Source of the DNA: Amphiscolops sp. MND2022
Taxonomy: Eukaryota
DNA: 64,000 nucleotides
Direction of reading: 5' to 3'
Assembly: GCA_964187785.1 (NCBI GenBank)
Contig: OZ076413.1
Coordinates: 62,992,001-63,056,000, forward strand
Shown: positions 3,328 to 30,358 of the stretch, one piece after another
Layout of the letters: every line of letters begins with the position of its first letter
Numbering within the stretch: position 1 is the stretch's first letter
Made by a program: the position numbers and the translations under genes
Notes under the pieces: generated by a model
What the model was told of the DNA's origin: nothing
Databases searched by the model: none
The model's input: the letters and a program-made list of their open reading frames with translations, nothing else

Positions 3328-3347
3328 CCCAGCGTTTGACATCTTGA
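2682..3347 (+). pseudogene. gag: Gag N-terminus encoded inside the solo LTR, reading out into flanking DNA
   Basis: ATG at 2682 (MPSTRKQKAREKRSRQSD...). The ORF crosses the LTR end at ...YGYD (3327) and stops in the flank. Confidence 0.7.
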
Positions 3348-3827: not shown

Positions 3828-5050
3828 GAGAGAAAAGGAAACATTTCTTCTGGTAGTCAGTCAATGTAGGTAATCAGGACGGCATAACGGAATGTTATAT
3901 TGGACAGTTAATGCCAAGTGACAACTCATATCAAATTGTAAAAAAACGGCAACTCATGTCAAGCATGACATTCACATCAATTGTGGAAAAGCGACAACTC
4001 GTATTAACATTTATTGAAACACAAACAATATCTTGTTTTTTTATCAACCAGAAGAAAAAAGAATTTTCACATCTGTCCCAATTTGTTCTCTTGGACGGAT
4101 CCCATACTATGTTGGAAGGCCTAATGCCAACATTCCACGGAGTTGTTTGTCCTGTGGGATCTAGTCAAGTTTTTTGCATATTGCTTTTATGCAGCTGGGC
4201 CAAACAGAAACTTGAAGAGTCGCCCCGTTGCTTCGGTAGTTCGAATTGGTCTGTGAAAAGTTTAAATTCGAAAGGTTTCGGGAAGGTTTCAACGAAAAAA
4301 CGAGGGGCAATGCCTTACAAATGACAAATGCCACACACTCGATTTCAGCGAAAGAAACATGGAATACAAGGTCGGCAAAATTAAATTTGAGGACCCAGAA
4401 GACCTGGTAACATTATAAACAATGACCTCAACAGGTGTACGCATGCTGGCACGATGATGAAAAACTCTGCAATAGTTCTCTGTCAGGCAGTGCCGTGCCT
4501 ACAATGTTTGAACTCATATCAAACTGGGCCTATTCAAGTCGCTAGAACTTCCAATTTTCATATACGTTCTTTTTTGCGGCAAATCATTGGACGGTACCAG
4601 GAATGCTGAGGAAAGGTGTGAAGAGGGTAATTGGGACCAAACACTAGTTATGCGAACAAATTGATGTCATGGTAAATTTTACCGCTACCGATGATAGATC
4701 TCTTTTTGCTTCAATAACTAAAGGAAAACAGCTTACACTCTGAGTATACATACCAAAATGACTTGTAGCGCAAGCAGACGCAAGAACTATCAAATAAAGG
4801 AATCCCGATCTGGGAGACATCGTAGTGAATACTTCTTCAGAAACTACCAAACTGTGAACAAAGTTAATAAATGTTTTGAAATTGGCAACGGACTTCGTGC
4901 CAAGGACAGCCTCTTTCGCGAAACATGAATGGAGTTTGATAAGCACAGCTCGAGATAATAGTCAAAAAAATTACCATTGATTTCCAACTACTTAAGCCCA
5001 CAAAACGTGAAGCTGGTGCGTTTGTTGTGACTGCGGAAAAGCAATATCAG

Positions 5051-7607
5051 TGTCGCCGGCTTACCCGTGCGAGATGTCCGGAGTGCAACATCGGTGAAGC
5101 AGTCAACGCTGCTTACCCATCATGATGGCTGTCTACCCGAATATGGACAAGGACTTGATAAACATTTCAAACTTTAAACTTAAACAATGCTTGTTATTGT
5201 TCGTTTGATAAGATGTTGCTTTTAGTTGTACATTTCAGATAAAATGATGATTGTTGAGTGTCGTTATTGTTGTTATTGTTTTCACCCATAACGTGCGTTG
5301 ATCAATTGAAAAACGACTGGAAAGGTAACGCCAAAGTTATCAAAACAGTGCTAAATCTTTGTTTTGTCGCCTTAAATCATAAGAAGGAGTTAAATTCAAT
5401 GATCCTATATATCTTTGCCACATTAAATCATTTGTAGTTCAATCATGAGGAAAACAATCAAAAACAGTATGATGATTCCTTTAAAAATCAGCATAATACT
5501 TTCGTACGTTTATTTGATACTGATTATGCGGCATTATGCAGTTTTCATAAAACAGCATATGCGGTTTTGTTAAAGAAACAGCATAATGATCATGTACGCA
5601 GTATAGTTGATACTTTGTATTGCATTATGCGGAAATTCAGTAGAAACAGCATGATGACTTGAGTTAAAAACAGCATATGCGGAAATTCAGTAGAAACAGC
5701 ATGATGACTTGAGCTAAAAACAGCATATGCGGGAATCCAGCAGAAACAGCATGATGGTTCAGATTGGAAACAGCATATGCGGAAACCTTGTGGAAACAGT
5801 CAGACGTTTCAATATAGGAACAGCATATGCGGAAATTTGACAGAAACAGTATGACGTTTCAACTTAAAAACAGTATAAAGATTCTTATTTCAGCTGATAG
5901 AATTATACTGAATTATGAGGTTTTCATGAGACAGCATATACTACATTATGATGTACAACAGCATAATTTGCAGGATTTTCAGTGCTACGATGTTGTAAGT
6001 CACAGTGCTATATTTAGACCTTCCAGGAGTCTGACGCAATATTATATTTTTAACATTTGACCCCAGAAACATGACGTTATGATGATTTGCATAAAATTGA
6101 AAGTCATGTAACTAAAAATACCATCCAATGGAATCAGTTGAAGGGGGATCATCAAAACGCCACTTTTCTAACGATCATTCGAGAAATATTGCACATTCAG
6201 AGCAGTCACTCATTTTCACAAACAACTCACAATCCACAAACTTTGCAGTTTCCTTCCCCTGTAAAAAAACTTCCACAGTTTCATTTTGCCAAATATCTTT
6301 GTAATTCAAAGATTTTCGCACCTAAAATTGTTTTCATCATGGGAAACAAGAGAAATAGACGATCAAGGAGAGTAGAGTCCCAATCATCAGACAGAGGCGA
6401 AAATACTTCAGAAACAAGCTTCACTCAAGGTAATGCGACTTTAGTTGGTGTTTCTGAAAATGTTAATAATGTTCTTGACAGGAACTTAGGCAGCGAACTA
6501 ACGGAACCTTCTCAGATAAACAAGGAGATAGAAGTTATTTCGCAAAGACTAACAGAACAGAATAACGACAAGATGTCACAGATTGAAGAACAACTAAATA
6601 ACAAATTCGAAGAGATACTTAAGGAGATTAGAACAAACAAAAATCACATTGTATTGACTGATGAAGAGGATGTCGAGAATAATCAGCCCGGTCCTCCTAA
6701 CTATAGAAATAAGGGTCTCAGGAACAAACACGCATCAAGTACAACATCAGATAAAAATAAGAATCAGGATGACGGTTCTATCCGTCTGAAATGAGTGAAT
6801 TAAGACAACCGTACACTCCACTTGAGATTGCTGAAGACATTTTAGATGAAACCATTATCATAACTGAAAACAGACAGGAAAAGGCCGATCATCACATGAT
6901 GACAGGACCTACCAAGAACATCCTGAGACAAAGTTCGACTAACTCCAACACCACAAATACACAAGGACCACACGCACAAACTCCTCTCGAGCATCCTGAA
7001 CCAACAGATCCCGTCAGTCAAATTGCCATAGCAATCGAAAATCTCGCACGAAGAAATACCAAACCATCCCTTTTTCACCCAAAGAACACACTTACTTTCA
7101 ACGGGAAATTAGAGAAAAATGAAAAACTCGAGTATTTTGAAGATCTTTTCCACACAACACTCAAAATGCAACCACACCTCACGGAAGACATGAAATTCAA
7201 CCATTTTCATGCCCATCTAAGAGGACTAGCATTGAAAACTTTTAAAAACATCCAAAGAACTCCGACAACAACACTTGAAGATATACTAGTAGTCTTCAGA
7301 AGGAAATATGTTAAGCCTGAATCCAGCGCCTCTGCAAAACACAGATTAAAACGGCTCATGTTCCAACCAGAAAATAAAAAACTACCCGACTTTTTTGAAG
7401 ACCTCCGAGAAAGCGCTGAAAAAGCATTCGGCGAAGCAGCACCACAGATGATTGAGAGCCTGATATATGCAAAAATGCCCCCTCATCTCAAAAATCAATC
7501 AACCAGGCTTACCTCGAAAACGGTACCTATGAACAAATAGTGAAACATCTAGAAAGAGAGATGGAGCTCAATGGACTCGAAGCAGATGAGCCCCTAGTAG
7601 CCCACTT
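5051..7607 (+). mobile_element. Truncated duplicate of the 5' end of the 17-kb Gypsy element (5' LTR 5051-6896 plus part of gag)
   Basis: Near-identical to 10059-12610, including the same left flank AAAAGCAATATCAG. Breaks at ...GAGCCCCTAG. Confidence 0.9.
6339..7607 (+). pseudogene. gag: Gag, frameshifted and 3'-truncated copy
   Basis: MGNKRNRRSRR start at 6339, frameshift near 6790, matches 11347-12610. Confidence 0.8.
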
Positions 7608-9500: not shown

Positions 9501-10058
9501 GAGGGAAAAGGAAACATTTCTTCTGGTAGTCAGTCAATGTAGGTAATCAGGACGGCATAACGGAATGTTATATACATCGTAAATCATTAGAGATTTAATG
9601 CCAAGTGACAACTCTTATCAAATTGTAAAAAAACGGCAACTCATGTCAAGCATGACATTCATATCAATTGTGGAAAAGCGACAACTCCTATTAACATTTA
9701 TCGAAACACAAACAATATCTTGTTTTTTTATCAACCAGAACAAAAAAGAATTTTCACATCTGTCCCAATTTGTTCTCTTGGACGGATCCCATACTATGTT
9801 GGAAGGCCTAATGCCAACATTCCACGGAGTTGTTTGTCCTGTGGGATCTAGTCAAGTTTTTTGCATATTGCTTTTATGCAGCTGGGCCAAACAGAAGCTT
9901 GATGCGTCGTCCCGTTCCTTCTGTAGTTCGAATTGGTCTCTGAAAAGTTTAAATTTGGAAGGTTTCGGAAAGGTTTCAACAAACAAACGAGGGGCAATGC
10001 CTTACAAATGACAAATGCCACACACTCGATTTCAGGGAAAGAAAAAAAGCAATATCAG

Positions 10059-11908
10059 TGTTGCCGGCTTACCCGTGCGAGATGTCCGGAGTGCAACATC
10101 GGTGAAGCAGTCAACGCTGCTTACCCATCATGATGGCTGTCTACCCGAACAAGGAAAAGGACTTGTTAAACATTTCAAACTTTAAACTTAAACAATGCTC
10201 GTTATTGTTCGTTTGATAAGATGTTGCTTTTAGTTGTACATTTCAGCTAAAATGATGATTGTTGAGTGTCGTTATTGTTGTTATTGTTTTCACCCATAAG
10301 GTGCGTTAATCAATTGAAAAACGACTGGAAAGGTAACGCCAAAGTTATCAAAACAGTGCTAAATCTTTGTTTTGTCGCCTTAAATCATAAGAAGGAGTTA
10401 AATTCAATGATCCTATATATCTTTGCCACATTAAATCATTTGTAGTTCAATCATGAGGAAAACAATCAAAAACAGTATGATGATTCATTTAAAAATCAGC
10501 ATAATACTTTCGTACGTTTATTTGATACTGATTATGCGGCATTATGCAGTATTCATAAAACAGCATATGCGGTTTTGTTAAAGAAACAGCATAATGATCA
10601 TGTACGCAGTATAGTTTATACTTTGTATTGCATTATGCAGAAATTCAGTAGAAACAGCATGATGACTTGAGTTATAAACAGCATATGCGGAAATTCAGTA
10701 GAAACAGCAAGATGACTAGAGCTAAAAACAGCATTTGCAGGAATCCAGCAGAAACAGCATGATGGTTCAGATTGGAAACAGCATATGCGGAAACCTTGTG
10801 GAAACAGTCAGACGTTTCAATATAGGAACAGCATATGCGGAAATTTGACAGAAACAGTATGACGTTTCAACTTAAAAACAGTATAAAGATTCTTATTTCA
10901 GCTGATAGAATTATACTGAATTATGAGGTTTTCATGAGACAGCATATACTACATTATGATGTAAAACAGCATAATTTGCAGGATTTTCAGTGCTACGACG
11001 TTGTAAGTCACAGTGCTATATTTAGACCTTCCAGGAGTCTGACGCAATATTATATTTTTAACATTTGACCCTAGAAACATGACGTTATGATGATTTGCAT
11101 AAAATTGAAAGTCATGTAACTAAAAATACCATCCAATGGAATCAGTTGAAGGGGGATCATCAAAAAACCACTTTTCTAAGGTTCATTCGAGAAATATTGC
11201 ACATTCAGAGCAGTCACTCATTTTCACAAACAACTCACAATCCACAAACTTTGCAGTTTCCTTCCCCTGTAAAAAAACTTCCACAGTTTCATTTTGCCAA
11301 ATATCTTTGTAATTCAAAGATTTTCGCACCTAAAATTGTTTTCATCATGGGAAACAAGAGAAATAGACGATCAAGGAGAGTAGAAGAGTCCCAATCATCA
11401 GACAGAGACGAAAATACTTCAGAAACAAGCTTCACTCAAGGTAATGCGACTTTAGTTGGTGTTTCTGAAAATGTTAATAATGTTCTTGACAGGAACTTAG
11501 GCAGCGAACTAACGGAACCTTCTCAGATAAGCAATGAGATAGAAGTTATTTCGCAAAGACTAACAGAACAGAATAACGACAAGACGTCACAGATTGAAGA
11601 ACAACTAAATAACAAATTCGAAGAGATACTTAAGGAGATTAGAACAAACAAAAATCACATTGTAATGACTGATGAAGAGGATGCCGAGAATAATCAGCCC
11701 GGTCCTCCTAACTATAGAAATAAGGGTCTCAGGAACAAACACGCATCAAGTACAACATCAGATAAAAATAAGAATCAGGATGACCGGTTCTATCCTTCTG
11801 AAATGAGTGAATTAAGACAACCGTACACTCCACTTGGGATTGCTGAAGACATTTTAGATGAAACCATTATCATAACTGAAAACAGACAGGAAAAGGCCGA
11901 TCATCACA
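10059..11908 (+). repeat. 5' LTR (1850 bp)
   Basis: Direct repeat of 25252-27155, preceded by the TSD ATCAG. Confidence 0.9.
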
Positions 11909-11926
11909 TGATGACAGGACCTACCA
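11909..11926 (+). promoter_or_regulatory. Probable primer-binding site (variant TGATGACAGGA...), inside the gag reading frame
   Basis: Directly follows the LTR-terminal CA in both copies. Resembles a TGGTG(A/T)CAGGA tRNA-Leu-type PBS but starts TGA. Confidence 0.45.
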
Positions 11927-13006
11927 AGAACATCCTGAGACAAAGTTTGACTAACTCCAACACCACAAATACACAAGGACCACACGCACAAACTCCTCTC
12001 GAGCATCCTGAACCAACAGATCCCGTCAGTCAAATTGCCATAGCAATCGAAAATCTCGCACGAAGAAATACCGAACCATCCCTTTTTCACCCGAAGAACA
12101 CACATACTTTCAACGGGAAATTAGAGAAAAATGAAAAACTAGAGTATTTTGAAGATCGTTTCCACACAACACGCAAAATGCAACCACACCTCACGGAAGA
12201 CATGAAAATCAACCATTTTCATGCCCATCTAAGAGGACTAGCATTGAAAACTTTTAAAAACATCCAAAGAACTCCGACAACAACACTTGAAGATATACTA
12301 GTAGTCTTCAGAAGGAAATATGTTAAGCCTGAATCCAGCGCCTCTGCAAAACACAGATTAAAACGGCTCATGTTCCAACCAGAAAATAAAAAACTACCCG
12401 ACTTTTTTGAAGACCTCCGAGAAAGCGCTGAAAAAGCATTCGGCGAAGCAGCACCACAGATGATTGAGAGCCTGATATATGCAAAAATGCCCCCTCATCT
12501 CAAAAATCAATCAACCAGGCTTACCTCGAAAACGGTACCTATGAACAAATAGTGAAACATCTAGAAAGAGAGATGGAGCTCAATGGACTCGAAGCAGATG
12601 AGCCCCTAGTGAAACCTCAAATGACTGCAGTCAAACAACATACCAACACACAAAACACTAAAACACCCCCACAAAACACAAAAACAAAAACAAAAACTCC
12701 AAACACAGTACCCAACAACACAATTCAAGTTAACCAATGCCGATATTGCAAGGATGAAGGCCACATAGCAAAAGAGTGCCCAAAACTTGCAAAACGACAG
12801 AAAATGGATCAAGACCCAGATGCACCAAGATGTGCCCATTGTAACACCCCTGGTCATGAAGAACCAAACTGTTACTTCGGAGCAAACATGGAAAATCGTC
12901 CACCTAAATGGACACTCACTGAAACCCAGAAAAAACTAATCAAAGAATATAAAAAATCAAACAAACCAATCAACCCTCGAAATCTCAAACCTTTAACATC
13001 GAAGGA

Positions 13007-13013
13007 TTTAAAC
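13007..13013 (+). promoter_or_regulatory. -1 programmed ribosomal frameshift heptamer T TTA AAC at the gag/pol junction
   Basis: Immediately precedes the gag stop (13014-13016). The -1 frame from 13010 stays open into the pol ORF at 13124 (checked codon by codon). Confidence 0.75.
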
Positions 13014-16000
13014 TAATAAAGCCACGCCTTCTTACAACAAAACCACAAAAACAACGCTCAGCCGATGACTGGCAGCATCCGCCGAGCCCCAAACCTATAA
13101 AAAACACAACCTACAATCATAACTTGACAAACAAAAGTAACTCTCCGACTGCAAACACTCAAATTACACCACCCGACCACCTTCAAGAGGATCTTTATGA
13201 CTTACGCAAAGATGCCCCAGATAATTATCTACTACGATCCATGTTTGAACCTGAAACTGAAACCGACACACAAAATCAACAACCCACAATCTCGCGACCT
13301 CAAGAAACACAAACTGACCAATTAAAAGCACAATCCACATCGACAACCCAAACTGACGATGACACTACATCGGGATTAACCAACACTCTCTTCAGTGCGT
13401 CTCCTGGAAAACAACCCCTCCTTGATGCCGACGTTTTTAATCACCTCACAACAGACGAAGGTAATAACGTAGCATATCTAAACCTTTCCTCAAACCTTAC
13501 CCTCAAAAAGAAGCGTGATATGTACTATTTCCCAATGGATTTCGAGAAATTAACTCTGGATGGACTCATTGATACTGGCGCCCTTACAAGCGCCATTTCA
13601 GAAAAGGATCTCAACAAAATAAAACTCCTTTCAAACGAAGCCATAAAAGATACTGGTCCAGCACCCAATTTTCAAATCATGGTGGCAAATGGTCAACTTG
13701 AGCGACCCATCGGCACCGTCTTACTTCAATTTGAAGTAGCAGACTTCCAATTTCAAGAGGACTTCATTGTCATGAAGGTACTACCCAACCCATTAATCGG
13801 CCTCTGTTTCTTACAAAGACACAATGCCATGTTTGACATTCGTCAAGGGATTATTACTTTCCCCTACCTGTCGATGCAATCACGACCAGACCACACAACA
13901 AATACCCGAACGACAACACCCCTTCTAACAGAAACTTCATACACCCTACAACGTGGAGAAGTCCTTGCAATCTCCAGCAAAATGCCACATCTGATAGATC
14001 TTAATGCCACAAGTATTGTCGTTCCGTCGTCACATATGGAAGATCACGAAAGTATTTTCATTACATCTTCCCTGTGTACGGTTATTAACAATGCAGTGGG
14101 CTACCAAGTGATCAATTTTTCGGATATGCCTCACACCCTTCCTATAGATACACACATGACAGACTTCCGAATTCTTACGCCCGAACAGATTAAACACATC
14201 AAACCTGTTGACCCATCAACCTTCACATTCATGATGCATCAACACATGGAAAACACGTATCTATACCTCAACCAATTGATGAAAACAAATCACTCATCGG
14301 ACGAACAAGAAACTTACTGGTTACCAACGCCTGAAGAACCTGTGGATCCAGATACATACACTCCAATAAAACAACGCATATATGATGAAGTACTTGAACT
14401 CAAACAGCTAGAACAATTAAACCCAAACGATAAAGACGAGTCAAGAATGAAATTTCTCAGTCACTTTGACTGGACGGACACTACCCTAAGCCCGTTCGAA
14501 AAACAACACATAGAAGATATTCTGGTACAATATCATGACATCTTCGCAAGACATCGTTTCGATATAGGTACCAATAGAGAATTCAAGGTCAAACTGACTC
14601 CAAATGATGACAGACCAGCCTACAGTCAAAGTCTTCCTACACCCATCAACCTCAAGGACGACATAACCGTTGAACTGGCCCTTCTTCATCGTTATGGAAT
14701 CACCACGACCCTACCGTTCTCTAAATACGCAAGCCCGGTTTTTGCCCAGAGGAAACCAAACGGACGCCTTCGACTTTTGGTGGATCTCCGCAAAATCAAC
14801 AACCTCATCACTCAGGACTACGTAAACAATAATCGACCAGTTAGCACTCTGTCAGACGCGGCACAGCATATGGCCGGCAAGAAACTTTTTTGCAAACTTG
14901 ATTGCTCTCAAGCATATCACTGCTTGCAAATGGCAGACTACCAGTCCATACAGATGCTAGCCTTTAATTTCGCGAGTCGAACATTTGCATATCGCCGCCT
15001 TGCACAAGGACTCAGCCGATCACTGTCTGCTTTCTCATCGTTCATGAGAGAATATTTGGATAAGGCAATCAAAGCTGATCAGTGCGCTCAATATGTCGAT
15101 GACATCGGCATCGCTGCGAATGATTCTACCCAGCTTTGCATCAACATCAAAACAGTCTTTGAATGCATACGCAAAGCAGTACTCAAACTTACGATGGCCA
15201 AATGCCATTTTGGAGTCAAACAAGTTGGCTTCTTGGGTCGGACAATTACCCCAGAAGGAGTCTCTCCACAAACCGAAAAAGTAAAACAATTCCTCCAAAA
15301 ACTCAAATTTCCGAAATCCAAAAAAGCACTCCAAAGATATATTGGGTTTCTCAACTACTATAGACACTAGATCCCTCGGTTATCAGAGAAACTAACCCCC
15401 TTTTTCAAACTGCTCAAACAAACATCACAATTCTCCATCCCGGATACAATTCTCGAAGCATTCAAAAGCCTCAACCAGCAACTGGAACAATCATGCAAAC
15501 TTGCTCTTAAACAACCAATTAAAAACAAACAACTCATTTTGATGACCGACGCTAGCTTTACAGCGGCAGGATATGCCATCATGATTGAGGATGATCCTGA
15601 CCAAAAGCTCCAAACTAGAAAGAAAACCTATGCTCCAATAGCCTTTGGTTCAAAAACTTTAAATCCATCCCAATTGAAAATGTCCATATACGCAAAAGAG
15701 TTCCTAGCAATCTACTTTGCGTTTTCTGAATTTGGACACTTAATGTGGGGCAGCGTTTTTCCGGTTATCGTCTTCACAGATAACAGATCTGTAACACGCT
15801 TTTTCCAAACCAAAATCATCCCCCGGCTCTTTGGAATGCATGCGACTACGTCCTCCAATACAATTTTGTCATTGCACATGTTGCCGGAGCCATGAATACG
15901 GCTGCAGACTTCCTATCGCGAGCTGAATCGAACCCCACAGAAAAACTTGAGATGAACATCCACAATGATGTCAATACAAAAGCAATTGAAGTTAACATAC

Positions 16001-18000
16001 AGTCCACTGGGGTCGCCGAAGAGGAACTCCTATATATACTCCCGGTGAATACCCCACAGAACAACAATTATGGGAGGAAAAAGAAACAATTCGTCAATCA
16101 GCAAAAACTGAAACCCACAATGAACCAGAAAATGAAGTGTTTGAACTAAAAACTTTCCACAAACCCACAGAGGGAACCATCAACTATAGTGAGGGCCACT
16201 TCAAAGACAATGCAAAAATCAGATTAGAACAAAACAATGATGAAGTTCTACGTAATTTGAGAGCCAAAATTGAAGGCGAACCCTACGACCAAACACAATT
16301 TACACAAGACTACCGATACAAATATTACTTACAAAACATAATGAGGATTGAAATAAAACAAGATGTCCTAACAAGAAGATACTACAACGACACTGGGATG
16401 ATAACCCATTATCAAATTCTTTTACCCAAACAACTCCTGGACGAATTCCTTCATGCTCTTCATGGTCATAACGCAAATCATCCGGGAATAACCAAAATGA
16501 TCCAAGAAGCACGACAAAAATACTACTACCCGTGCATCGCCAAATAAATCCGGAATTGGGTAACAAAATGTCAAATGTGCATCCAAAACAAACGGATCAA
16601 CAATGACTTACTTAAAACGGAACTACTAAACTGCCCCGAATGGGATTGGGGCCCAGAGGACATCCAACAAATGGACATCCTTCCCAATCTCCCACCAAGC
16701 GGAGGATATGACAACATCATCACTGCAATAGACGTGTTCTCACGCTATTTGTTTGCCTATCCAGTCACGAGAATCACTGCTCCAGCAGTGGCAAAAATCA
16801 TTATGGACATTTTGTGTAAACACACATACCTACCCACAACAATCATTACCGACATGGGCACTCAATTTAATTGTCAGGTTACAAAAGAAGTAGCCGCAGT
16901 CCTGAACATAGAACTGAAACATGCAACGACAAAACACGCCCAAACAATCGGACTGTTAGAACGTACTCATGCATCAGTCAAAGCACACCTTAAGGCAGCC
17001 ACTGGAGAATTTAGAAACAATTGGCACAAGTTTCTACCACTGGCAGTCTTAAACCATAATACAACCTACCATGCAACACTAGGATGTGAACCTACACGGG
17101 TCTTCCATGGACGGATTCCGCACAACATACTGGACTTCAAACTTGGATACAACCCAAATCCTCGCTTCCAACCCCAAACTGAGGTAGCAGAGGAAGTACA
17201 AAGAAGGATTGCTTTACTTCACGATCAGACAAAGAAAAACATCATGCAATCTTACCTTAAATATAAAGCATATTACGACAAGAAAGCAAAGGCATCACCT
17301 CTAACGACAGAGGATTATTGCTTTATCCTGAATCCAAAGGCCGACACACAAGCAACGAAGATACCTTTTCGTGATTTTCGTTGGGCTGGTCCCTATAAAG
17401 TTGAAAAGGTCCTTCCGAACAATAATTATATTGTTCGTAGATTGGGCACGAATAAAACCCAACTACTCCACCGCATTCGACTACGAAAATACACTCCACA
17501 AGCTCCTCTCGCCGATAATTTTGTCAGAGAAACTGACTGGCACAAAGAGGATACACTTGTCTCTCAAAATGATTTATATGCCCATGCTTGGGACAGTAAT
17601 TTTGGCAGCAGTCCATTCGATCCTGACCACGAAGTCTGATCAACAGGAAGACACAGTGGAATATGAACCTACTCCTCAACCAAAAATATACCACCCTCCC
17701 GCCCTCAATAAATCAAAAAATAGTGGGGGGATCCCAGCAGGACAACCTGCTGCGAACGACAAAGAACCTCAAATAACCGAAAAAACATCTTCAGAAAATG
17801 AAATTCATGATCCCATTCCAGAAACTTCCAGAAATCCAGAAAATATTCATGAAATCCCTACCCAAAATTCCCCAAAAACTCCTGAAATCAACCCAGAAAA
17901 TGACGCACAAGAAGCTGAAGAAACTGTTAACACAAGAGGCGAAAAATATAACCTACGCCGAAACCCTAACCCAAACTACTCAGACTCATACAGATATTAA
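13010..18000 (+). pseudogene. pol: Pol polyprotein: aspartic protease, RT, RNase H, integrase; a few stops and frameshifts
   Basis: LIDTGA; YVDD; TDAS/TDNRS; HHCC Zn region (HGHNANH...C..C); integrase DILP, TDMG, ERTH. Lesions near 15368, 15895, 16140, 16545 and 17637. Confidence 0.93.
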
Positions 18001-18277
18001 AAGACAAATCAAGAAGACTCAAAGACTTGCATTATATACTATGGTCTCCTTCGTCAATCTTTTTCTCATGTTTTTCTTCATTCTTTATCTCACTTCCAAT
18101 CAAAATTGGAAGCGATCATTTTTTTTTCCTCTCCAAACTGGAGGCAGACATCAAATGAGGCGTAATCAGCCAAAAAAGAGAAAATAACTATACAAACAAA
18201 ACAGACATCAAATCAGCAAAAATATAGAAAATTCAAGAGTCAAGATGAAACATCAATGATCAATTCCAGCCAATTCT

Positions 18278-21200
18278 TCATTTCTTATCTCCTTCTTTCT
18301 TTCGGACAACTAACTTCTTGACCCCAACGGGCTGGGACTCGGGCAAGATTGGCACGTCCACTCTATAACGTGGGCTTGAAAGGGCAGATGTTGCAAGCAC
18401 AGGAGATGTTCGGGTGATTTTGCCTTTTGCCCCAGTTGACTCTGGCCCGCTCTGAATTGGAGTAGGAGCAACAAATTTGGAAGGCTTAGGGGTCTTAGGA
18501 GATTGAATGGGGCTTGAACTAGCTGATTGCGGCTTATCATGAAGCGCAACCCAAGATTTCTCTTCGTCAGAAATACTACAAGTTTACCGAGAATCGAAAT
18601 GGTTAGATATACGTCAAAGCGGGATGAACATGACGAAGTAAGGTCCCAGACTGACAGATAAGCGTCTTCTAATAGAGCCCGCCCTAATAAAACAGAAGAA
18701 ACAGTTCTCGGGTTGGCATACAATTCAGACACATTGGGTACCCCAACTGAAGAAGACTGAATGCTCCTAACGCAGGACTGGAATTCACGGGAATCAGATG
18801 CAAGTTCGGGTAGCTCAATAGTAATAACAGAAGGGATAACGTGGACCCCTGATAAACTCAGAGTACATAGCTTGAAGACTGTAAATAAATTCTCCCGACA
18901 CTGAAGCTCATTATGATTTGACATAAAGCTGATCCATCCTCCCTCATAAGAAATGCTGTGAGATCTGAATTTCTCCACAAACGCTCCATACTCACTCAGG
19001 ACCAATGGTTTAGTAGTGTGGGATATCCATTTTTGCTGCACCAAGTAGTCGCAAAGTAACTCGGACTCATGTACATAGTCCACCTCTTCCCCGTACCGGA
19101 TAACGGCTTCATCGAACACAGAGAATCCTCGGACAAGCTTAGACTTAGAGACTTTATGCTTCAGAAGAAGGATGCAGAGGTTTTTATAAAAACATAGAGC
19201 TTGTTCGACAAATCGAGTGGGGGTGGGCAAATCACTTTCTGCAACAAGCTTGGCAAAGTCCTTGTTTTGCATGAAATCTGCAACAGACTTTATAGGAAGA
19301 TCTGGAGAAGAGAGATCAACGGACATAAAATGATCCCAATGGGAGATGTCGCCAAGAAAAGAGTCAGATAATATAAACTGCAGCTGACTGTAAGCAAATG
19401 TAGTAAAGGCGCTGTATACTCGGAAACCTTCAGGAGGGGAAACTCCATTCACCCCTTTGAAAGCAGAGTTGTCTTAACACAAGTAATGATTAAAAACAAC
19501 CTGAGTAATACTACCAAATACCGACCAAAATAAGCGATGGTGAAATGAGAACTAACAGTGTAAAAGCACATTTCGGATCAAGAACAGTTTGGCTGCGTAC
19601 GACTTGTCCTTTAAGAAAGTTTCATCAATACTCTTGGGCTGGAAAGGAAATAAAACTTGAGAACCAAATGGAAGAGAGAAAGCAAAATGAAAGAAATAAA
19701 TTAATAATTACCTCTTTCAAGTGGTATTTAAATGCCTTCAATCGGTCGGCGAGTCGAAGATGGGAAATGACCTTGCTCCAATTTTGGCACAACTGATCAA
19801 GAACCACAACTGATTCAACAAGGCTGTACTTGAGGTTGGAGATGGCCTAAAACAACAATGTTACAACGATACTATGATAACGCATTAGAATACGGAATAA
19901 AATCTGCAATTCCGACGCATTATGCGGTTTTCCGAACTCCGCATAGGATGCCAACCAGTATACAGCATAGACAATGCTGCTTATGCGGTTTACAGAAACA
20001 AACAGCATAAGGAGAAATCGGCATGCGGTTTTCACGAGAAAACAGCATGAAAAGAACAAATTATATCGTCTATACCGTTCTCAGGAGAAAACGGCATAGA
20101 ATGATGCATTATGCGGTTTTCAGAAGAAAACAGCATAAGAAGAAACCAGTATGCGGTTTTCAGAAGAAAACAGCACAAGAAGAAACCAGTATGCGGCTTT
20201 CAGAAGAAAACCGCATAAGAAGAAACCAGTATGCGGCTTTCAGAAGAAAACAGCATAAGAAGAAACCAGTATGCGGTTTTCAGAAGAAAACAGCATAAGA
20301 AGAAACCGGTATGCGGCTTTCAGAAGAAAACAGCATAAAAAGAAATCATTATGCGGTTTTTGAAAGAAATCTGCATAGAAGAAATCATTATGCGGTTTTA
20401 AAAGAAATCTGCATAAAAGAAATCACTATGCGGTATTTGGAAGAAATCAGCATAAATGAAACCAGTATGTCGCTTTTGCGATAAATCAGCATAAAAGGTG
20501 GCTTACACTATGCAAAAGAAAATGATATGCGGCAAAGCATAAGAAAAAACCGCATGAAGGAATACATTAAAAGCAAACTAGCTGCAGGACGAGAGCGCTT
20601 AAATCTTCATAAAATTTGTCCGTTCGTTATGCTGCATTATGCGGTTTTCAGAGTGGAGCAAAGAAACAAAATATACTATATTATATGGATCCCCTGACAG
20701 CGATAAAACGACTGAATTCGTATTATGAATGGCCTACAACGAGGAATTGTTGCAAAAAAATCCATGAAACAAAGCTCAAAGAGGTAATCAAGAAAATTAC
20801 TTTACGGAGCTCAGGAAGGTCGTTCAACCAAGTAGACCCAGAAGCCGTTCGCAACTTCATTAGAAGAAACTGTAGTACGCTGTGATAGTCGTAACGGTCC
20901 AGAATCTTGACAGTGGGTCCCGCTCACAACTTGTCCAAATCTTCATGTGAAAAGGTAGGCACCACACCACACACACCGAAGGCACTTGAACGGATTCAGT
21001 ATTGATTGTGAATAAAGTATTGAGGAGTGAATAAAGAGGAGGTACACTAGGGAATGCAGCAAGAAAAGAGCTGACGATCTGAAGAACTTCTTTTGCAATC
21101 ATGAGACTGTTTGGGGTTTCGGCTAGTAAAAGATTGTTGAATACGTTTCCAGACCAGAATGTTAGGACCACTTGGGAATTATCTTGATTGGTGTGAAGTT

Positions 21201-22606
21201 GGAGTGAGAATTGACCCGACTGACCAATTGCAGTAACTGAGTATGACAGTGAAGTGCGGAACATGTGGACCAAGATTCCCTGTGAATGAAAATGTGGTTA
21301 ACTAAAAGAATGGTGATTAGAAAGACAACCAAAATGATAGGAAAATACTTACAAAAACACGGTCTTTATCCCAGCTGTATTGAGGCACCTTAATTGGTCC
21401 TCTAACTTCGAGCCCGAGGTAGCCCCAGAGAGAAGTGAGAGTATCTAAGTCACCGCCATACTTCAACCCAGCCAACAGAATTCGTATTTGGCAGCAAATT
21501 GTGGTGCTTGGGTCTAATTCATCAGTCGGCACAGGAAGTTTGCGTTGTCCGGCGAGCAGGTAACATTCCTCGAGAATAGGTGCAATGGGAATTTCCAGTT
21601 CAGCTTTCTCTCGTGCTGCAGCTAAATCAGCCCCAGTGAGCTCCAACTCATTTTTTCCGTAAAGGGGCATTCCAGGAGTCTCCATCCTGATGCGGTGTTC
21701 ACGGACTAAATGGGCGTCAGTTCTATAATGGGAGAGAATTTCAAAGGAACCTTTGGTCTTCAATGACAACTCAATGTGGCAAACTCTGCAACGCCACTTA
21801 TGAGGGTTGTTGGCGGAATCAATTGGTGCAGTTACGAAGAACTTGAAGATGGGATGTTTCCTGTACATACTCCCGGTCAACTGCATTCTTGGTAGTGGTC
21901 GCTTGGAAGCTGAGTGTTGATCACCTGGATTGATGCGGGCTGTACTTTTTTCCCTTACCCTTGTCTGCCTTCTCCTTTTGCGAGAATGTCCTGCGGGGGG
22001 TGTGATTTGACCTCCTGTTGTACTAGCGGGCGACACCATCAAGGATGATTCCATATTTGTCACACTGGTTTTCGTCCCTGTTGAGGTCCCAGGAGCCTGC
22101 GACCCAGGCATTTCAAATTGTTTTATCAACCTTGAACTGATAGAGGTGGTTGATTCAGAAATCATAGTTTGCATGCGTTGCTCTAACGCCAACAAGTCCA
22201 GACTGGTAACATAGATACTTGAGGAAGTAAATTGCCCAGCTTCTGTTGCAGTGGATGTTTGAGCAATTGGAGATATAGCTCTTGGAGTAATGGCCTGTGG
22301 GGTCCGATTGAGAAAACTGGAAAATGGGGAAAGGCAAGTTTTACCCATTTGTGGAATCGACTCTGATGATCCACTTGGTCCGACGTCACGGTCGTTCTTC
22401 TCCGAATGACCTGTAGCATGTAAGAAAGACTGTTCAATATCATCTTTAGATTGGGGATTAGCGTCACCCCGTAAAGCAGATGCAAGAAAGCTAACTGTGG
22501 TTTCTGTACGGGGCCCATCGGAACTTGAAACATGGATGCTATTATCGAAGGAATGCCTTATGCCGTCTAAATCGACAAAAGATTTTGAACCTTCATTGCA
22601 CTCCAT
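18278..22606 (-). CDS. Antisense multi-exon accessory gene: Zn-finger protein, possibly from an inactive hAT transposase (~1000 aa, about 2 frameshifts)
   Basis: Four frame-preserving GT-AG introns: 21352-21280, 20800-19847, 19711-19639, 19556-19473. WRCRVC...HY...H finger in the first exon. Confidence 0.75.
19921..20650. repeat. Array of TATGCGG-N14-C[A/C]GCATA motifs with a ~40-bp tandem core (about 20109-20340), inside an intron of the antisense gene
   Basis: Unit TATGCGG(T/C)TTTCAGAAGAAAACAGCATAAGAAGAAACCAG. Confidence 0.85.
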
Positions 22607-23549
22607 TTGATGATCCGGTGTCGAATGATGAGTTGGATTACCAAAGGGAAGTAAAGGGGTTAAATCGACAGTGGGAGACGGGTCCTGTGCCGAGGAAGCA
22701 GAAGGGAGTGTGGCTGAAACAAATACGAAATCAGCAAATATAGAAAATTGGAACAGCCAAAGAATTGACTGTTTAAGATAGTGGGAGCCTGATCAACTCT
22801 CACTCTAAACAAACAGGACTAGCTAGTTCGAAAAAGTATTCACGACTTGAAACAGGAAATCCGGAATTCAACCTGCGAATAGTTGGTGAAAACTGAAATT
22901 CGTTCAACAATCGAAACGGGATGTTCTAAAGAACCTTCGATGATTACTTGAAATCAAATCTTCGCTCCAATTTAATTGAATTGGACGAAAAGAAATTCGA
23001 AATTACAGACCTTGTGTTGGCTCTTCGCTTCTTTCTTGGCCAGCTTCTTTCCCTTCCATTGTAAAGTAGATTCCCACAGAATAGAAATTGAAATCCCTTT
23101 GTGGTAGATCCAAATTTCAAAAATGAGATGCAGCAAGACTAGAGAAGTGATTGTAACTAGTAAATGAAGAAGAATGGAGATTTGGAAAAGACGAAACCGT
23201 AAATGAATCTGACAAACTATGGAAACTGAAAGAAATAAAGGAAGTAGAAGAAGATTGGTGTGAAAACTCTCGAGGGACTGTTAAACGACGAAGGAAAGAC
23301 TATGAAAACATAAAGACTATGAAAAGACAAAGACTTGGAGACTTGAGACAGTATGTAAATGCAAAGAAGAAACAATCTTGGAAGGCGTGGCAAATAACAT
23401 GAAGGCAATAAAGCAAATGAATGAAGTCAATTTCACAATGCACACAATTCACATTAAATCTGATTATCTGAGAGAGTGTATGCAGCTTGGAAGTATTGCC
23501 AGTATAACCAAGTTAATATGCATGCGCTGTTAACACGCAGGAGCTGGAT

Positions 23550-23770
23550 TATGCGGAAAGTTTACAAAACAGCATAATATGATTAGGAGGTAATCACAGT
23601 TGAACAGTATATGCATTCAAGAGAATCCGGAACAACACTGCGAACAGGATGGCAACTTCACGCGGATATTGTAGTAAATCAGCATAATGGTTCATCACAT
23701 TATGCGATGAACTGCAGAAAACAGCATAATATGGTTATGCGAAAAAGAATGATGAACAGCATAATGCGAT
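23550..23770. promoter_or_regulatory. Cluster of about 4 TATGCG-N14/15-CAGCATA motifs between the divergent antisense gene and ORF3 (possible bidirectional promoter)
   Basis: Examples: TATGCGATGAACTGCAGAAAACAGCATA and TATGCGAAAAAGAATGATGAACAGCATA. Promoter role is inferred from position only. Confidence 0.45.
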
Positions 23771-24395
23771 AATAGAACTGATAAATAGAATTATGATGCA
23801 TTATGATGATTTCAGTGTGCGGCATATGTCGCGAATGGCTATTTGCAATTATATCATCAGTCATAAACTGATGAAAATACGAATCAAGTTGTTACGTCAG
23901 AAGTGAATGATGTTACAAAGGTGTGAAAACTTTCACTTTGATGAACCTGAATGAACCTATGATATATTTAATTATGAGCAATTTAAATTATTCAGACGGA
24001 ATAAGAAGAAGACAACCGAAACATAAAAGAAATTGAAACGAAAATTTCAGGATCTGATGATTGTTTATATGACATTAACAATTTTACCGGTGCTATTTCC
24101 CCCATATCCCACGATAAATTATCTGAAAACCCGGGAAATGGGTGATTCGAGATATGTTCTGATGCTATTTGTAAGAAAACCCCCGTAACACAATAAAAAC
24201 TATAAAATCTTATCATTCTGATCATAAATCTCCAAAAATTAGCCGCTTATTTTCCTCTCTCTCTTCGACAAATTCCTTGAGAATTTAAAAATCATATTGT
24301 GTTAAATATTCTTGAAACTTGACTGGAATCAAATAAACCCATAGTCAGACAATGAGAGTACACCACGAAACTCGATCCTCAATAGAACTGATTCA

Positions 24396-25298
24396 ATGAA
24401 CCCTGCATTGGACCTAATCAATATCTCAAGTAGTTCGGGGGAAGAATTCATGGTGGAGCCCCTCTCAGTGAACGATCTCGATGAAAGATTCAGATCTGCC
24501 CCATACCCTCTGACAGACATGTCCACAGCCTTTATGGGAGCAGCAGGACCAGTGTTATTCCCTAGCAGCACCGATCCACAAGCAGGAGATGGTCAACAAA
24601 TTGACACTAGGAACTCCCGTATCGAAAATGAACTGATGGACCTCAAGGATGATGTACCTAATACTTCCTCCCTGACCTTCATCGGATCATCAGAAAAAGA
24701 AGACGATCCGTTCCTTGATGCCAATTTCGCTATTGTAGATCAGGCTGATAGAAACAGCTACGGTCGACCAGTCCAAAGGGTACAACCTATGGTCAGAACC
24801 CCACGAGTAACAAGAGCAACAGTGAACCCCCCGCTCGTACCAAGTAACAGAAGCGCTTTCTCAGTGGTAATACTCGAACAAAGAAGAGCTCCAGAAATAC
24901 AAACACACCCATCTATGCAAGCTAACTATTTGCCTATGCCCGTTCCGTTTTACACCAATAATTGGAACAATATTACACATCCTCAACAAAACTTTCACGG
25001 TCAAGCTCAGATTCAACCTCAAGGGCCACCTAACGGGCCCATATTGCAGATGAACCCTCCAGTAATGCCCGAAGTGGCCGGGTTTTGTGCTGGCTGTTCC
25101 AAAACTTATGACCAAATTGCTGTCGAGACGCTCACCCATTATGTTGCGTGGTCCGAGTATCCAGACGAAACAATTCGCGATCGCAATGTGAGGTCAAGAG
25201 CATTTGTTGATGGGTTTGGAGCAGCGCTGATCTGCTTCAAAAATGCTGGACTGTCGCCGGCTCACCCGTGCGAGATGTCCGAAGTGCAACATCGGTGA
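24396..25298 (+). CDS. ORF3 of the Gypsy element, unknown function (disordered P/Q-rich N-terminus, CxxC-containing C-terminal domain), ending inside the 3' LTR
   Basis: Uninterrupted 300-aa ORF whose last ~15 codons lie in the LTR. No signal-peptide or TM pattern of an env. Confidence 0.65.
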   Translation: MNPALDLINISSSSGEEFMVEPLSVNDLDERFRSAPYPLTDMSTAFMGAAGPVLFPSSTDPQAGDGQQIDTRNSRIENELMDLKDDVPNTSSLTFIGSSEKEDDPFLDANFAIVDQADRNSYGRPVQRVQPMVRTPRVTRATVNPPLVPSNRSAFSVVILEQRRAPEIQTHPSMQANYLPMPVPFYTNNWNNITHPQQNFHGQAQIQPQGPPNGPILQMNPPVMPEVAGFCAGCSKTYDQIAVETLTHYVAWSEYPDETIRDRNVRSRAFVDGFGAALICFKNAGLSPAHPCEMSEVQHR

Positions 25299-27155
25299 AG
25301 CAGTCAACGCTGCTTACCCATCATGATGGCTGTCTACCCGAATATGGACAAGGACTTGATAAATATTTCAAACTTTAAACTTGAACATTGCTTGTTATTG
25401 TTCGTTTGATAAGATGTTGCTTTTAGTTGTACATTTCAGCTAAAATGATGATTGATGATTGTTGAGTGTCGTTATTGTTGTTATTGTTTTCACCCATAAG
25501 GTGCGTTGATCAATTGAAAAACGACTGGAAAGTTAACGCCAAAGTTATCAAAACAGTGCTAAATCTTTGTTTTGTCGCCTTAATTCATAAGAAGGAGTTA
25601 AATTCAATGATCCTATATATCTTTGCCACATTAAATCATTTGTAGTTCAATCATGAGGAAAACAATCAAAAACAGTATGATGATTCATTTAAAAATCAGC
25701 ATAATACTTTCGTACGTTTATTTGATACTGATTATGCGGCATTATGCAGTTTTCATAAAACAGCATATGCGGTTTTGTTAAAGAAACAGCATAATGATCA
25801 TGTACGCAGTATAGTTTATACTTTGTATTGCATTATGCGGAAATTCAGTAGAAACAGCATGATGACTTGAGTTAAAAACAGCATATGCGGAAATTCAGTA
25901 GAAACAGCATGATGACTTGAGTTATAAACAGCATATGCGGAAATTCAGTAGAAACAGCATGATGACTTGGGCTAAAAACAGCATATGCGGGAATCCAGCA
26001 GAAACAGCATGATGGTTCAGATTGGAAACAGCATATGCGGAAACCCTGTGGAAACAGTATGACGTGTCAATATAGGAACAGCATATGCGGAAATTTGACA
26101 GAAACAGTCTGACGTTTCAACTTAAAAACAGTATAAAGATTCTCATTCCAGCTGATAAAATTATACTGAATTATGAGGTTTTCATGAGACAGCATATACT
26201 AAATTATGATGTAAAACAGCATAATTTGCAGGATTTTCAGTGCTACGATGTTGTACGTCACAATGCTATATTTAGACCTTCCAGGAGTCTGACGCAATAT
26301 TATATTTTTAACATTTGACCCTAGAAACATGACGTTATGATGATTTGCATAAAATTGAAAGTCATGTAACTAAAAATACCATCCAATGGAATCAATTGAA
26401 GGGGGATCATCAAAAAACCACTTTTCTAACGATCATTCGAGAAATATTGCATATTCAGAGCAGTCACTCATTTTCACAAACAACTCACAATCCACAAACT
26501 TTGCAGTTTCCTTCCCCTGTAAAAAAACTTCCACAGTTTCATTTTGCCAAATATCTTTGTAATTCAAAGATTTTTGCACCTAAAATTGTTTTCGTCATGG
26601 GAAACAAGAGAAATAGACGATCAAGGAGAGTAGAGTCCCAATCATCAGACAGAGACGAAAATACTTCAGAAACAAGCTTCACTCAAGGTAATGCGACTTT
26701 AGTTGGTGTTTCTGAAAATGTTAATAATGTTCTTGACAGGAACTTAGGCAGCGAACTAACGGAAGCTTCTCAGATAAGCAATGAGATAGAAGTTATTTCG
26801 CAAAGACTAACAGAACAGAATAACGACAAGATGTCACAGATTGAAGAACAACTAAATAACAAATTCGAAGAGATACTTAAGGAGATTAGAACAAACAAAA
26901 ATCACATTGTAATGACTGATGAAGAGGATGCCGAGAATAATCAGCCCGGTCCTCCTAACTATAGAAATAAGGGTCTCAGGAACAAACACGCATCAAGTAC
27001 AACATCAGATAAAAATAAGAATCAGGATGACCGGTTCTATCCGTCTGAAATGAGTGAATTAAAACAACCGTACACTCCACTTGGGATTGCTGAAGACATT
27101 TTAGATGAAACCATTATCATAAAGGAAAACAGACAGGAAAGGGCCGATCATCACA
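25252..27155 (+). repeat. 3' LTR (1904 bp), including the gag N-terminus from ATG 26597
   Basis: TGTCG...TCACA, followed by the TSD ATCAG. Confidence 0.9.
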
Positions 27156-29570: not shown

Positions 29571-29800
29571 CTAGCCGGGAACGGCCCAATTAGGCGCCAT
29601 ATCTACCGCCAACAAATTATGTGAAAATTTCCGGGAAAATTGATGCTATACGAGAAATGAAAACGCTATATCTGAACTTTGAAAACGTTACATCAGAACT
29701 TTGAAAACGTTATATCCGAACTTTGAAAATGTTTAATTCGAACTTTGAAGACGTTATATCCGAACTTTGAAAATGTTATATTCGAACTTTGAAGACGTTT
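29571..29800 (-). repeat. Helitron-like terminus (CTAG) followed by a ~23-bp tandem repeat (TATATCCGAACTTTGAAAACGT)
   Basis: CTAGCCGGGAACGGCC terminus and about 5 units. Related units occur reverse-complemented at 63460-63680. Confidence 0.55.
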
Positions 29801-29825
29801 TTTCCGGACGTTGAAATGGTTAGTG

Positions 29826-30230: not shown

Positions 30231-30358
30231 TGTAGACAAATGAATCAATCCAACAAAAAACTCTTTTTAAATGTAGTTGTCTTACTTGTTACAAAAAACA
30301 CAATAACACAATAAAATATGACGAAATGGATTAAATTGTTTCTTTTTTAGCTTATAGT

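Follow-up and report, generated by a model that had tools for sequence, protein, structure and literature searches.

Arrays of a fixed-spacing bipartite motif in a Ty3/Gypsy retrotransposon that carries an antisense gene for a candidate DNA-binding regulator

The element and its partial duplicate

The analyzed stretch of DNA (64,000 nucleotides, in the following called the window) contains a 17-kb LTR retrotransposon of the Ty3/Gypsy type at 10059-27155. Its Pfam matches follow the order gag, protease-RT-RNase H-integrase, as in Ty3/Gypsy. Both LTRs have TG...CA ends and are 97.5% identical. The target site duplication ATCAG, which lies within the norm of 4-6 bp, directly precedes the 5' LTR (10059..11908, + strand, 1850 bp) and follows the 3' LTR (25252..27155, + strand, 1904 bp), which has one 50-bp unit more. 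At the position of the tRNA primer site, the sequence after the 5' LTR starts with TGA and not with TGG, and no purine run that could serve as polypurine tract precedes the 3' LTR. The neighbors of the element in the window include Bel/Pao-like and Polinton-like ones.

The gag gene (11347..13016, + strand; zf-CCHC and weak Retrotrans_gag/Ty3_capsid matches) has its ATG inside the 5' LTR, which contains the first 562 nt of gag, and is frameshifted near 12470-12550. The pol gene (12953..18000, + strand), comprising protease, RT, RNase H and integrase, is interrupted by stops and frameshifts from 15368 to 17640. ORF3 (24396..25298, + strand, 300 aa), the last 47 nt of which are within the 3' LTR, is mostly of low complexity, has a CxxC near its C-terminus and has close relatives; a family search gave no match and no recognizable DNA-binding family.

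A further copy of the 5' flank, the LTR (5051-6896, with the same motif array) and the start of gag is present at 5037..7598 (+ strand). It includes the same flank and is a local duplication, not an independent insertion. The preliminary description lists arrays in three LTR copies; the LTR identity and the flank-including duplication rule out that these are independent occurrences. The DNA comparisons reported here cover one element and its partial duplicate.

The antisense gene

On the minus strand a gene with five exons is predicted. Exon 1 (23011..23059), the least secure one, has an ATG at 23059, and its phase fits exon 2. Exon 2 (21353..22713) holds a long variable low-complexity region, a basic patch, a C-x2-C-x16-H-x5-H finger (about 21796-21710) and a helical segment. 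Exon 3 (20801..21279), a mixed strand/helix-like segment, is open in relatives; in this copy its frame is shifted near 20950-20980 and meets a stop near 20925. Intron 3 (19847..20800, 954 nt, GT-AG) is the largest of the predicted introns. Exon 4 (19712..19846) comprises 45 open codons; the relative P0105 matches 19783-19709 at 80%, and the distant relative P0199 gave no alignment to this exon. Exon 5 (18310..19638), the frame of which is disrupted near 19480-19560 in this copy, encodes a low-complexity tail and a domain modeled as all-helical (pLDDT 84). Spliced together, the five predicted exons would encode one protein of about 1100 residues. No second copy of the gene was found in the window.

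The family of this gene is large (46 clusters), with identities in the last exon down to 24%. Its most conserved part is the C2H2/BED-like finger, with an identity to 24 relatives of 0.83, compared with 0.51-0.74 in the rest of the 187-aa region. All four ligands are kept in 33 of the 40 representatives with a finger start, in line with the antisense Zn-finger protein proposed earlier, and even between subfamilies of about 50% identity the finger hardly changes. As to the type of finger, Atlas feature leads to zf-C2H2_12 and zf-BED clusters reached 0.86-0.87, under the mark of 0.9, and the zf-BED profile matched 2 of 25 exon-2 members with a best E of 0.067. The model of the finger is of low confidence (pLDDT 54); its fold search gave 0 matches at E 0.001 (best Z 4.7), and rows for ZBED1 and ZBED2 appeared at E 1.4-3.3 on that weak model.

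By eye, the antisense protein looks like a hAT-type transposase lacking the catalytic set. In the alignments A4 and A2 one conserved Asp-Gly was seen, but no CxxH and no conserved C-terminal Glu motif; the register of these by-eye alignments leans on what we take to be the hAT domain layout and not on a reference alignment. Together with the sub-threshold Atlas lead, this makes a hAT-type transposase a possible ancestor, with catalysis since lost and the finger and oligomerization parts retained. Pfam, NCBIfam, PHROG and PDB-sequence searches gave no match supporting such an origin. PF05699 and DUF4371 matched none of 51 last-exon, 18 exon-3 and 25 exon-2 sequences and, at E 10, none of 14 further proteins; four profiles run against PDB sequences gave low-complexity or chance rows only, and Atlas gave no usable match for the last exon. 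The confident, all-helical last-exon model had 0 matches at E 0.001 in the PDB and BFVD and no hAT structure among the rows; its best row (Z 5.3, rmsd 3.5, 77 aligned) was an unrelated protein. This model covers the last exon, RNase H-like strands being expected in exon 3, and the absence of hAT structures from its rows speaks neither for nor against a hAT origin. For the last exon, relatives of greater length (768-2190 aa) were not found, which is weak evidence.

As to the association of the gene with Gypsy elements, the contigs of four out of 11 close pol relatives each have the same length as that of an antisense-gene relative, which would reach significance only with an assembly larger than about 300 Mb; the remaining seven had no such contig match among the matches listed.

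A bipartite motif at fixed spacing

The motif ATGCGG-N14-CAGCAT is a polarized pseudo-palindrome found nearly always on the + strand. A scan for TATGCGG-N(8-20)-C[A/C]GCAT gave 22 matches in the window, with 0.01 expected. They represent 20 distinct sites, all of which fall in the LTR copies, in intron 3 or in the divergent region between the antisense ATG and ORF3, where the motif had been described. The spacer is 14 nt long in 17 of them and 11, 13 and 17 nt in one each. The five spacers quoted in the preliminary description are all present in the window, but the left half belonging to two of them, in the divergent region, is ATGCGA and not ATGCGG. On the + strand of the arrays in the 3' LTR, the intron and the divergent region, ATGCGG occurs 23 times but ATGCTG twice, and CAGCAT 27 times but CCGCAT three times. 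Perfect inverted pairs, described before for some copies, occur at 19921, 20190 and 20526, but these are rare, and the polarity rules out a true symmetric palindrome. Since the site is asymmetric, the picture of a simple, symmetric homodimer site is incomplete.

Most copies with a 14-nt spacer sit in tandem arrays, and copy counts therefore overstate the evidence. Yet the spacing signal persists after correction for tandem copies. With the element counted once, a spacer of 14 pairs 21 of 33 right half-sites with a left half, or 16 of 33 when the left-half variant ATGATG, added post hoc after the data had been seen, is left out. In the non-tandem divergent region all four right half-sites are paired at 13 or 14. 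Outside the element, none of 44 right half-sites was paired at 13-14 in 44 kb of DNA, which is mostly other repeats and includes the Bel/Pao-like and Polinton-like neighbors.

Beyond the window, no related loci were found in viral contigs or prokaryote genomes, and no phage match was found. The motif scan of viral contigs gave one single match; that of metagenomes gave 33 loci, none of them element-like and none with more than three pairs.

Comparison of the three arrays

The LTR array (25677..26222 in the 3' LTR and 10477-10972 in the 5' LTR, + strand) is built from a 50-bp unit with two pairs, ATGCGG-14-CAGCAT and an overlapping ATGATG-14-CAGCAT. Its tandem part ends at a TATAAA at 26132; its placement in U3 is an assignment by position. 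A sigma-70 scan stayed at chance level, its consensus being bacterial and irrelevant for a eukaryote. The intron array (19921..20644, + strand) has a 40-bp tandem unit with half-sites alternating every 20 bp. Of the four introns only intron 3 has half-sites (28 vs 0, 0 and 0). An antisense intron is not spliced from the genomic RNA and hence survives retrotransposition, so the array could be retained there. The divergent region (23550..23763, + strand) has four non-tandem pairs with spacers of 13, 14, 14 and 14, upstream of the antisense gene. All arrays are non-coding, and they adjoin the TATAAA and the antisense start.

This placement bears on two further explanations. The antisense gene could be a DNA transposon nested in the element, with the arrays as what is left of its subterminal repeats; hAT subterminal repeats are indeed bound by BED domains (PMC10368747, in the accessible text), and the gene has introns. 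However, the sites lie in both LTRs and in the intron and not at the ends of the gene, the gene family is large and diverged, and the search for TIRs with an 8-bp TSD gave one weak candidate around the gene, compared with 0-1 in eight shuffles. The longest exact inverted repeat around the gene is 10 nt. A recent nested transposon is ruled out by the TIR and TSD search, and we regard the nested origin as a whole as barely credible. Another protein of the element, ORF3, integrase or Gag, could be the binder, and ORF3, with its CxxC and its close relatives, adjoins the divergent sites. Its sequence composition and the lack of a family match speak against it, and integrase works at the LTR tips, not at internal arrays; we consider this very unlikely.

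Between the arrays, the half-sites are 0.83-1.0 identical (left halves of the ATGATG type 0.56-0.67), whereas identity at spacer positions 1-10 stays at the background level (0.24-0.34) with the spacing kept. Arrays with different repeat units, which have the 20-bp half-site period in common, share half-sites and spacing, as had been claimed, and not whole units. A matrix trained on the intron array recovered LTR and divergent sites as 21 of the 22 top matches outside the training array; with a matrix trained on the LTR array, intron and divergent sites made up 22 of 22.

These findings can be set against the possibility that the arrays are RNA or ssDNA hairpins (for packaging, dimerization, splicing control or as a small-RNA source) or products of neutral slippage from one ancestral unit. 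All sites are on one strand, the predicted fold of the intron array is strong (z -11), and Retand elements often have tandem arrays between pol and the 3' LTR for which no role is known, according to the accessible part of PMC11963269. On the other hand, that of the LTR array is weak (z -2.35, with a largely unpaired centroid) because its spacers lack self-complementarity, which excludes an RNA hairpin as the feature common to the arrays. The commonest pair has a stem mismatch, spacers of preserved length whose positions 1-10 are unrelated between arrays do not fit, and an Rfam search gave no match but two chance-level rows. We consider this explanation improbable.

Among the six LTR 50-mers, 3 of 18 half-site columns are variable vs 19 of 32 others (p 0.007, with the half-site columns defined post hoc after the data had been seen). 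The corresponding intron test (2/12 vs 22/28) is circular because the units were chosen via the motif. Across the three LTR copies, differences are as frequent in half-site columns as in others (4/132 vs 15/378), which is expected for decay after insertion and lends no support. Changes at CG compared with GC amounted to 11/52 vs 1/64 between the 5' and 3' LTRs, 10/52 vs 5/65 between the 5' LTR and the copy, and 5/51 vs 6/66 between the 3' LTR and the copy, so that a putative signal of CpG methylation is mixed.

The evidence for selection on half-sites fits equally well if the arrays are enhancer sites for one or more host factors, collected at both promoters and in the intron, with the antisense protein doing something else. 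Arrays of host-factor sites are common in LTRs, and the polarity would suit a heterodimer or a two-domain monomer. But no paired site was seen in the 44 kb outside the element, with the composition given above, and the largest array lies inside an intron of the finger gene, of which the finger is the most conserved part. We regard host factors, the strongest of the alternatives, as possible, though on the doubtful side.

A possible self-targeting switch

The occurrence of the same motif in the LTRs, in the intron and upstream of the finger gene suggests that a DNA-binding switch is likely encoded by the element itself. Our favored interpretation, which we hold tentatively and at slightly less than an even chance, is that the finger protein of the element binds the arrays and thereby switches on or shields both promoters, much like VANC and TnpA in plant DNA transposons. 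The protein would bind as a dimer or oligomer, a pair of fingers contacting a pair of related half-sites that lie some two helical turns from each other. Once bound, it would activate the promoters of the LTR and of its own gene or shield them from silencing, and this self-binding would result in a positive loop. The sites may have spread via tandem duplication.

Rather unlikely, but worth stating, is a more specific history: a Gypsy lineage, likely an animal one, would have taken up a whole intron-bearing hAT gene and kept it in antisense, with catalysis lost and sites of the subterminal-repeat type redeployed as arrays, yielding a self-activation circuit like those of VANC and TnpA. If the hAT origin is true, a regulator crossed from a DNA transposon to a retrotransposon. 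Our literature search, with most subscription journals and Repbase outside its scope, found no case of such a transfer, which does not prove novelty. Antisense ORFs of no known function are widespread in Gypsy elements. The present element combines a candidate protein with an exactly delimited candidate site, and the question of the role of an antisense accessory ORF is therefore reduced to a single binding assay.

Comparison with known systems

Sequence-specific self-activation or anti-silencing by transposon proteins is established in plant DNA transposons. According to the accessible text of PMC5735166, VANC21 of the VANDAL elements binds dense arrays of motifs in the same orientation, introns included. 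The VANC-like self-targeting proposed earlier is supported insofar as the element described here also combines an element-encoded candidate DNA-binding protein with a short motif in dense, same-orientation, tandemly expanded non-coding arrays, one of them in an intron of its own gene; a symmetric homodimer site is not supported. VANDALs belong to the Mutator-like DNA transposons of plants, and their single 9-bp motifs differ from one subfamily to the next (PMC5735166), whereas here an LTR retrotransposon has a bipartite 26-bp site and a near-invariant finger. Hence a conserved motif is predicted, unlike the fast divergence of VANC and its targets. A Pfam search for DUF1985 and DUF287 gave no match in the antisense gene or the element. 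Spm TnpA, a proposed transposase-derived regulator that lost its catalytic residues, is proposed to act on motif clusters of its own element but stays in its own DNA-transposon superfamily and has HTH domains (bioRxiv 10.64898/2026.08.24.746577, in the accessible text). The words "LTR" and "Gypsy" do not occur in that accessible text; the candidate described here, of putative transposase origin, resides in a retrotransposon.

In the hAT elements Hermes, Kat1 and BuT2 (Tip group), the accessible texts describe a CCHH-type finger at the N-terminus, strictly phased quasi-palindromic sites flanked by AT-rich sequence and, for BuT2, a gene with five exons (PMC10368747, PMC4763223, PMC3942097), all reminiscent of the antisense gene and its arrays. 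The BED domains of Hermes recognize a strictly phased quasi-palindrome whose two half-sites differ (PMC10368747); these half-sites abut, whereas here they are 14 nt apart. In contrast to hAT elements, no TIRs with 8-bp TSD beyond the chance-level candidate surround the gene, PF05699, DUF4371 and fold matches are missing, and by eye there is no full DDE, CxxH or Trp set.

Among LTR elements, Retand/Tat plant Gypsy elements have antisense TRP28 ORFs and tandem arrays, with a plant-only TRP28 domain and LTRs of 0.3-1.2 kb, and the accessible parts of the sources draw no sequence link between ORF and array (PMC11963269, PMC7264820). Here, by comparison, a finger gene with five predicted exons is accompanied by one motif in LTR and internal arrays, and the 1.9-kb LTRs hold the start of gag; PF04195 (TRP28) gave no match in the antisense gene or the element. 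Foamy virus Tas, as far as the accessible texts describe it, is the transactivator of an LTR element that acts on the LTR promoter and on an internal promoter driving itself (PMC8670036, PMC13220597). Tas is a retroviral protein encoded in sense orientation and, as far as tested, shows no sequence relationship, and the present element has no env; the two-promoter logic of Tas is that which we tentatively propose for the antisense finger protein.

The element and its antisense gene

The arrays belong to a 17.1-kb Ty3/Gypsy retrotransposon (10059-27155), in which gag and pol follow the Gypsy order and are broken at several places. Both LTRs (5' LTR, 10059-11908; 3' LTR, 25252-27155) have TG...CA ends and the target site duplication ATCAG. 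They are unusually long and include the gag ATG and the first 562 nt of gag (11347-11908 and 26597-27155). Since the start of gag thus lies within the 1.9-kb LTR, the presumed primer site falls inside the gag reading frame. The sequence following the 5' LTR opens with TGA, not TGG, and no purine run was seen before the 3' LTR. The motif array occupies LTR positions 426-971, and a TATAAA at 26132 ends its tandem part; this portion of the LTR is probably U3. A further copy, at 5037-7598, is a local duplication in which the same flank recurs.

The antisense gene and the sense ORF3 are situated between pol and the 3' LTR. ORF3 (24396-25298, 300 aa) has a CxxC near its C-terminus and overlaps the 3' LTR by 47 nt. 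No family could be assigned to it, no env likeness was found in Pfam, and two close relatives were identified, one of them 92% identical. ORF3 or another protein of the element could in principle be the one that binds the arrays, but little supports this and we regard it as very improbable.

For the antisense gene, five exons on the minus strand were predicted from GT-AG sites and phases: 23059-23011, 22713-21353, 21279-20801, 19846-19712 and 19638-18310. The junctions are supported by the relatives, which read through the GT donors as Val and align to exon 4 and to the start of exon 5. Val is the next residue at the end of exon 2 in 20/20 scorable representatives (the end motif is present in 23/46), and at the end of exon 3 in all 16 that could be scored, of 19. 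In the window's copy the finger region of exon 2 is open and exons 3 and 5 carry breaks; the relatives are open over exon 3. Half-sites occur only in the third intron of 954 nt (28, versus 0, 0 and 0 in the other introns).

A polarized site with fixed spacing

The preliminary description had reported a palindrome with fixed spacing, and the spacing was borne out. The pattern TATGCGG-N(8-20)-C[A/C]GCAT matched 22 times in the window versus 0.01 expected, corresponding to 20 distinct sites, 17 of which have a spacer of 14 nt; all matches are confined to the LTR copies, 19921-20555 or 23550. All five spacers quoted in that description were found, although two of them, from the divergent region between the antisense ATG and ORF3, are preceded by ATGCGA. 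The site is not a palindrome but polarized: counted on the plus strand over the arrays of the 3' LTR, the intron and the divergent region, ATGCGG occurs 23 times and ATGCTG twice, and CAGCAT 27 times and CCGCAT three times. Our working description of the site is (T)ATGCGG-N10-(A-rich 4)-CAGCAT(A/G) on a single strand. In the intron array the half-sites alternate at 20-bp steps, about two helical turns.

Because the arrays are tandem (50-bp units in the LTR, 40-bp units in the intron) and identity among the three LTR copies is 97.5-98.2%, raw motif counts are inflated. With the element counted once, a left half lies exactly 14 nt upstream of 21/33 right half-sites, 5 of these 21 pairs depending on the variant ATGATG, which was added after inspection of the data; with this left half, every LTR 50-mer contains a second, overlapping pair. 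Outside the element none of 44 right half-sites is paired at 13-14 nt (background chance 0.003 per position). In the divergent region, which has no tandem-repeat call, each of the four right half-sites has a partner at 13 or 14 nt. Matrices trained on a single array retrieved the other two arrays, with outside matches of 1/22 and 0/22, in a ranking that left out the other two LTR copies.

Between arrays, identity is 0.83-1.0 for the left and right half-sites (0.56-0.67 for the ATGATG left half), 0.24-0.34 for spacer positions 1-10 and 0.42-0.80 for positions 11-14. This free spacer fits poorly with the arrays being RNA structures or neutral, as does the LTR array with its folding z of -2.35, whereas the intron array (z -11) would suit such an explanation, which we consider improbable. 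Among the six LTR units in fixed register, 3/18 half-site columns vary versus 19/32 others (p 0.007). The corresponding numbers for the ten intron units (2/12 versus 22/28) come from a circular test and carry little weight. As evidence to the contrary, half-site columns differ between the three LTR copies as often as the others (4/132 versus 15/378). All of this DNA-level evidence would be accounted for equally well by a host factor that binds the arrays, an unlikely but serious alternative to a protein of the element.

Family and possible origin of the antisense protein

Relatives of the finger region form 46 clusters at 90% identity, all from ENA, with members 49-95% identical. The finger, C-x2-C-x16-H-x5-H, is the best-conserved stretch (0.83 versus 0.51-0.74 elsewhere, 24 relatives) and nearly unchanged between subfamilies that are about 50% apart. 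All four ligands are kept in 33/40 representatives that include the finger start; in 6/46 this start is missing from the ORF. The family is large, and its last exon has 149 representatives with identities down to 24%. Its very distant members, at 24-29% identity, are P0199, P0204, P0209, P0223 and P0225; as P0204 heads a cluster of 59 members, a second large subfamily exists.

No named family was found for the antisense protein in the domain libraries searched. For exons 2-3, the Atlas lead was to zf-C2H2_12 and zf-BED clusters (0.86-0.87, under the 0.9 mark). The last exon gave a confident all-helical fold model (pLDDT 84), for which structural searches returned no match. By eye, the order of finger, helical part, strand-rich segment and short linker exon, then a long helical domain, closely resembles the layout of Tip-group hAT transposases. 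In alignments of the relatives the strand-rich segment holds a conserved Asp-Gly, and most catalytic positions, judged by eye against this layout, are no longer conserved. Pfam hAT domains matched neither the antisense protein nor the relatives tested. On the by-eye comparison, an origin from a hAT transposase is somewhat favored. A nested transposon has little support and is highly improbable; a recent one is unlikely, as no terminal inverted repeats or target site duplications above chance surround the antisense gene.

With contigs labeled by their lengths, relatives of other parts of the element putatively share a contig with a relative of the antisense gene in 3/8 cases for close integrases, 1/3 for RNase H and 1/2 for ORF3. 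The p value for the 11 pol relatives would be 0.10 if the assembly measured 200 Mb and 0.01 if it measured 400 Mb. These shared contigs are at most suggestive of the gene moving together with the element.

A possible self-targeting circuit

The self-targeting interpretation has been sharpened by the analysis and is plausible. That the candidate finger protein binds the arrays of its own element with a regulatory outcome is a tentative reading, at somewhat under even chances. The antisense transcript would start from the divergent region and then be spliced. A gene antisense to the genomic RNA of a retrotransposon keeps its introns, and by this logic the antisense gene here would not lose its own. 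The finger protein would oligomerize and place two fingers on two related half-sites, which would share one face of the helix and have A-rich inner flanks. Occupancy of the arrays, which lie beside the TATA box of the LTR, 5' of the antisense start and inside the intron, would activate both transcripts or shield them from silencing. The outcome would be a positive loop restricted to the element's own family. That this would be a retrotransposon activating itself with a regulator derived from a hAT transposase is rather unlikely.

Signs that methylation is what the protein would oppose are mixed. Changes at CpG exceed those at GpC between the 5' and 3' LTR (11/52 versus 1/64); a comparison of the 3' LTR with the duplicate shows no CpG excess (5/51 versus 6/66). 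CpG observed/expected over the window is 0.88.

Neighboring DNA

The 5' LTR is directly preceded by a duplicated stretch (3327-4357 and 9004-10044) in which ATCTTG(G/A) repeats with periods of 9-44 bp abound; this stretch may represent a non-autonomous element that carries a motif array of its own. On the minus strand, a broken Bel/Pao-like element (30350-36700; DUF1759 at 34695-35171) contains no paired motif. A Polinton/Maverick-like region (44000-62500) encodes a protein-primed DNA polymerase B (48975-51686), a weakly matching A32-like ATPase (56312-56989) and an integrase (57653-58615), and may be bounded by a 91-bp inverted repeat pair (42167-42257 and 62462-62550). Together with the spliceosomal-type introns, the Bel/Pao-like and Polinton-like elements suggest that the host is an animal. 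Unrelated repeats are a 22-bp tandem (x7, 29658-29816), a 156-bp tandem (x2.5, 43310-43703) and a CCA-rich run (42726-42816).

Comparison with known systems

Our literature searches turned up no case of a hAT-derived finger gene combined with matching arrays in an LTR retrotransposon, although one could be described in Repbase reports, subscription journals or supplements. Gypsy-encoded PMD domains (PMC5418596) and rotifer ORF3 captures (PMC5408684) are other cases of accessory genes. In Retand elements of plants, antisense ORFs occur together with tandem arrays, and a regulatory role was suggested without naming a site (PMC11963269, PMC7264820); lacking TRP28, our element is not a member. The BED domains of the hAT transposase Hermes bind a quasi-palindrome with two different half-sites and require AT-rich flanks and strict phasing (PMC10368747). 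There, however, the half-sites abut, whereas here they are separated by a spacer. A further likeness would be to foamy-virus Tas, for which an LTR promoter and an internal one are both targets. The targets bound by VANC21 are dense arrays of uniform orientation that lie in non-coding DNA including introns and spread by tandem duplication (PMC5735166); TnpA descends from a transposase (10.64898/2026.08.24.746577). The element has no VANC domains and is thus not a member of that family, yet if its own protein is the binder, it would work like VANC/VANDAL and TnpA/Spm.
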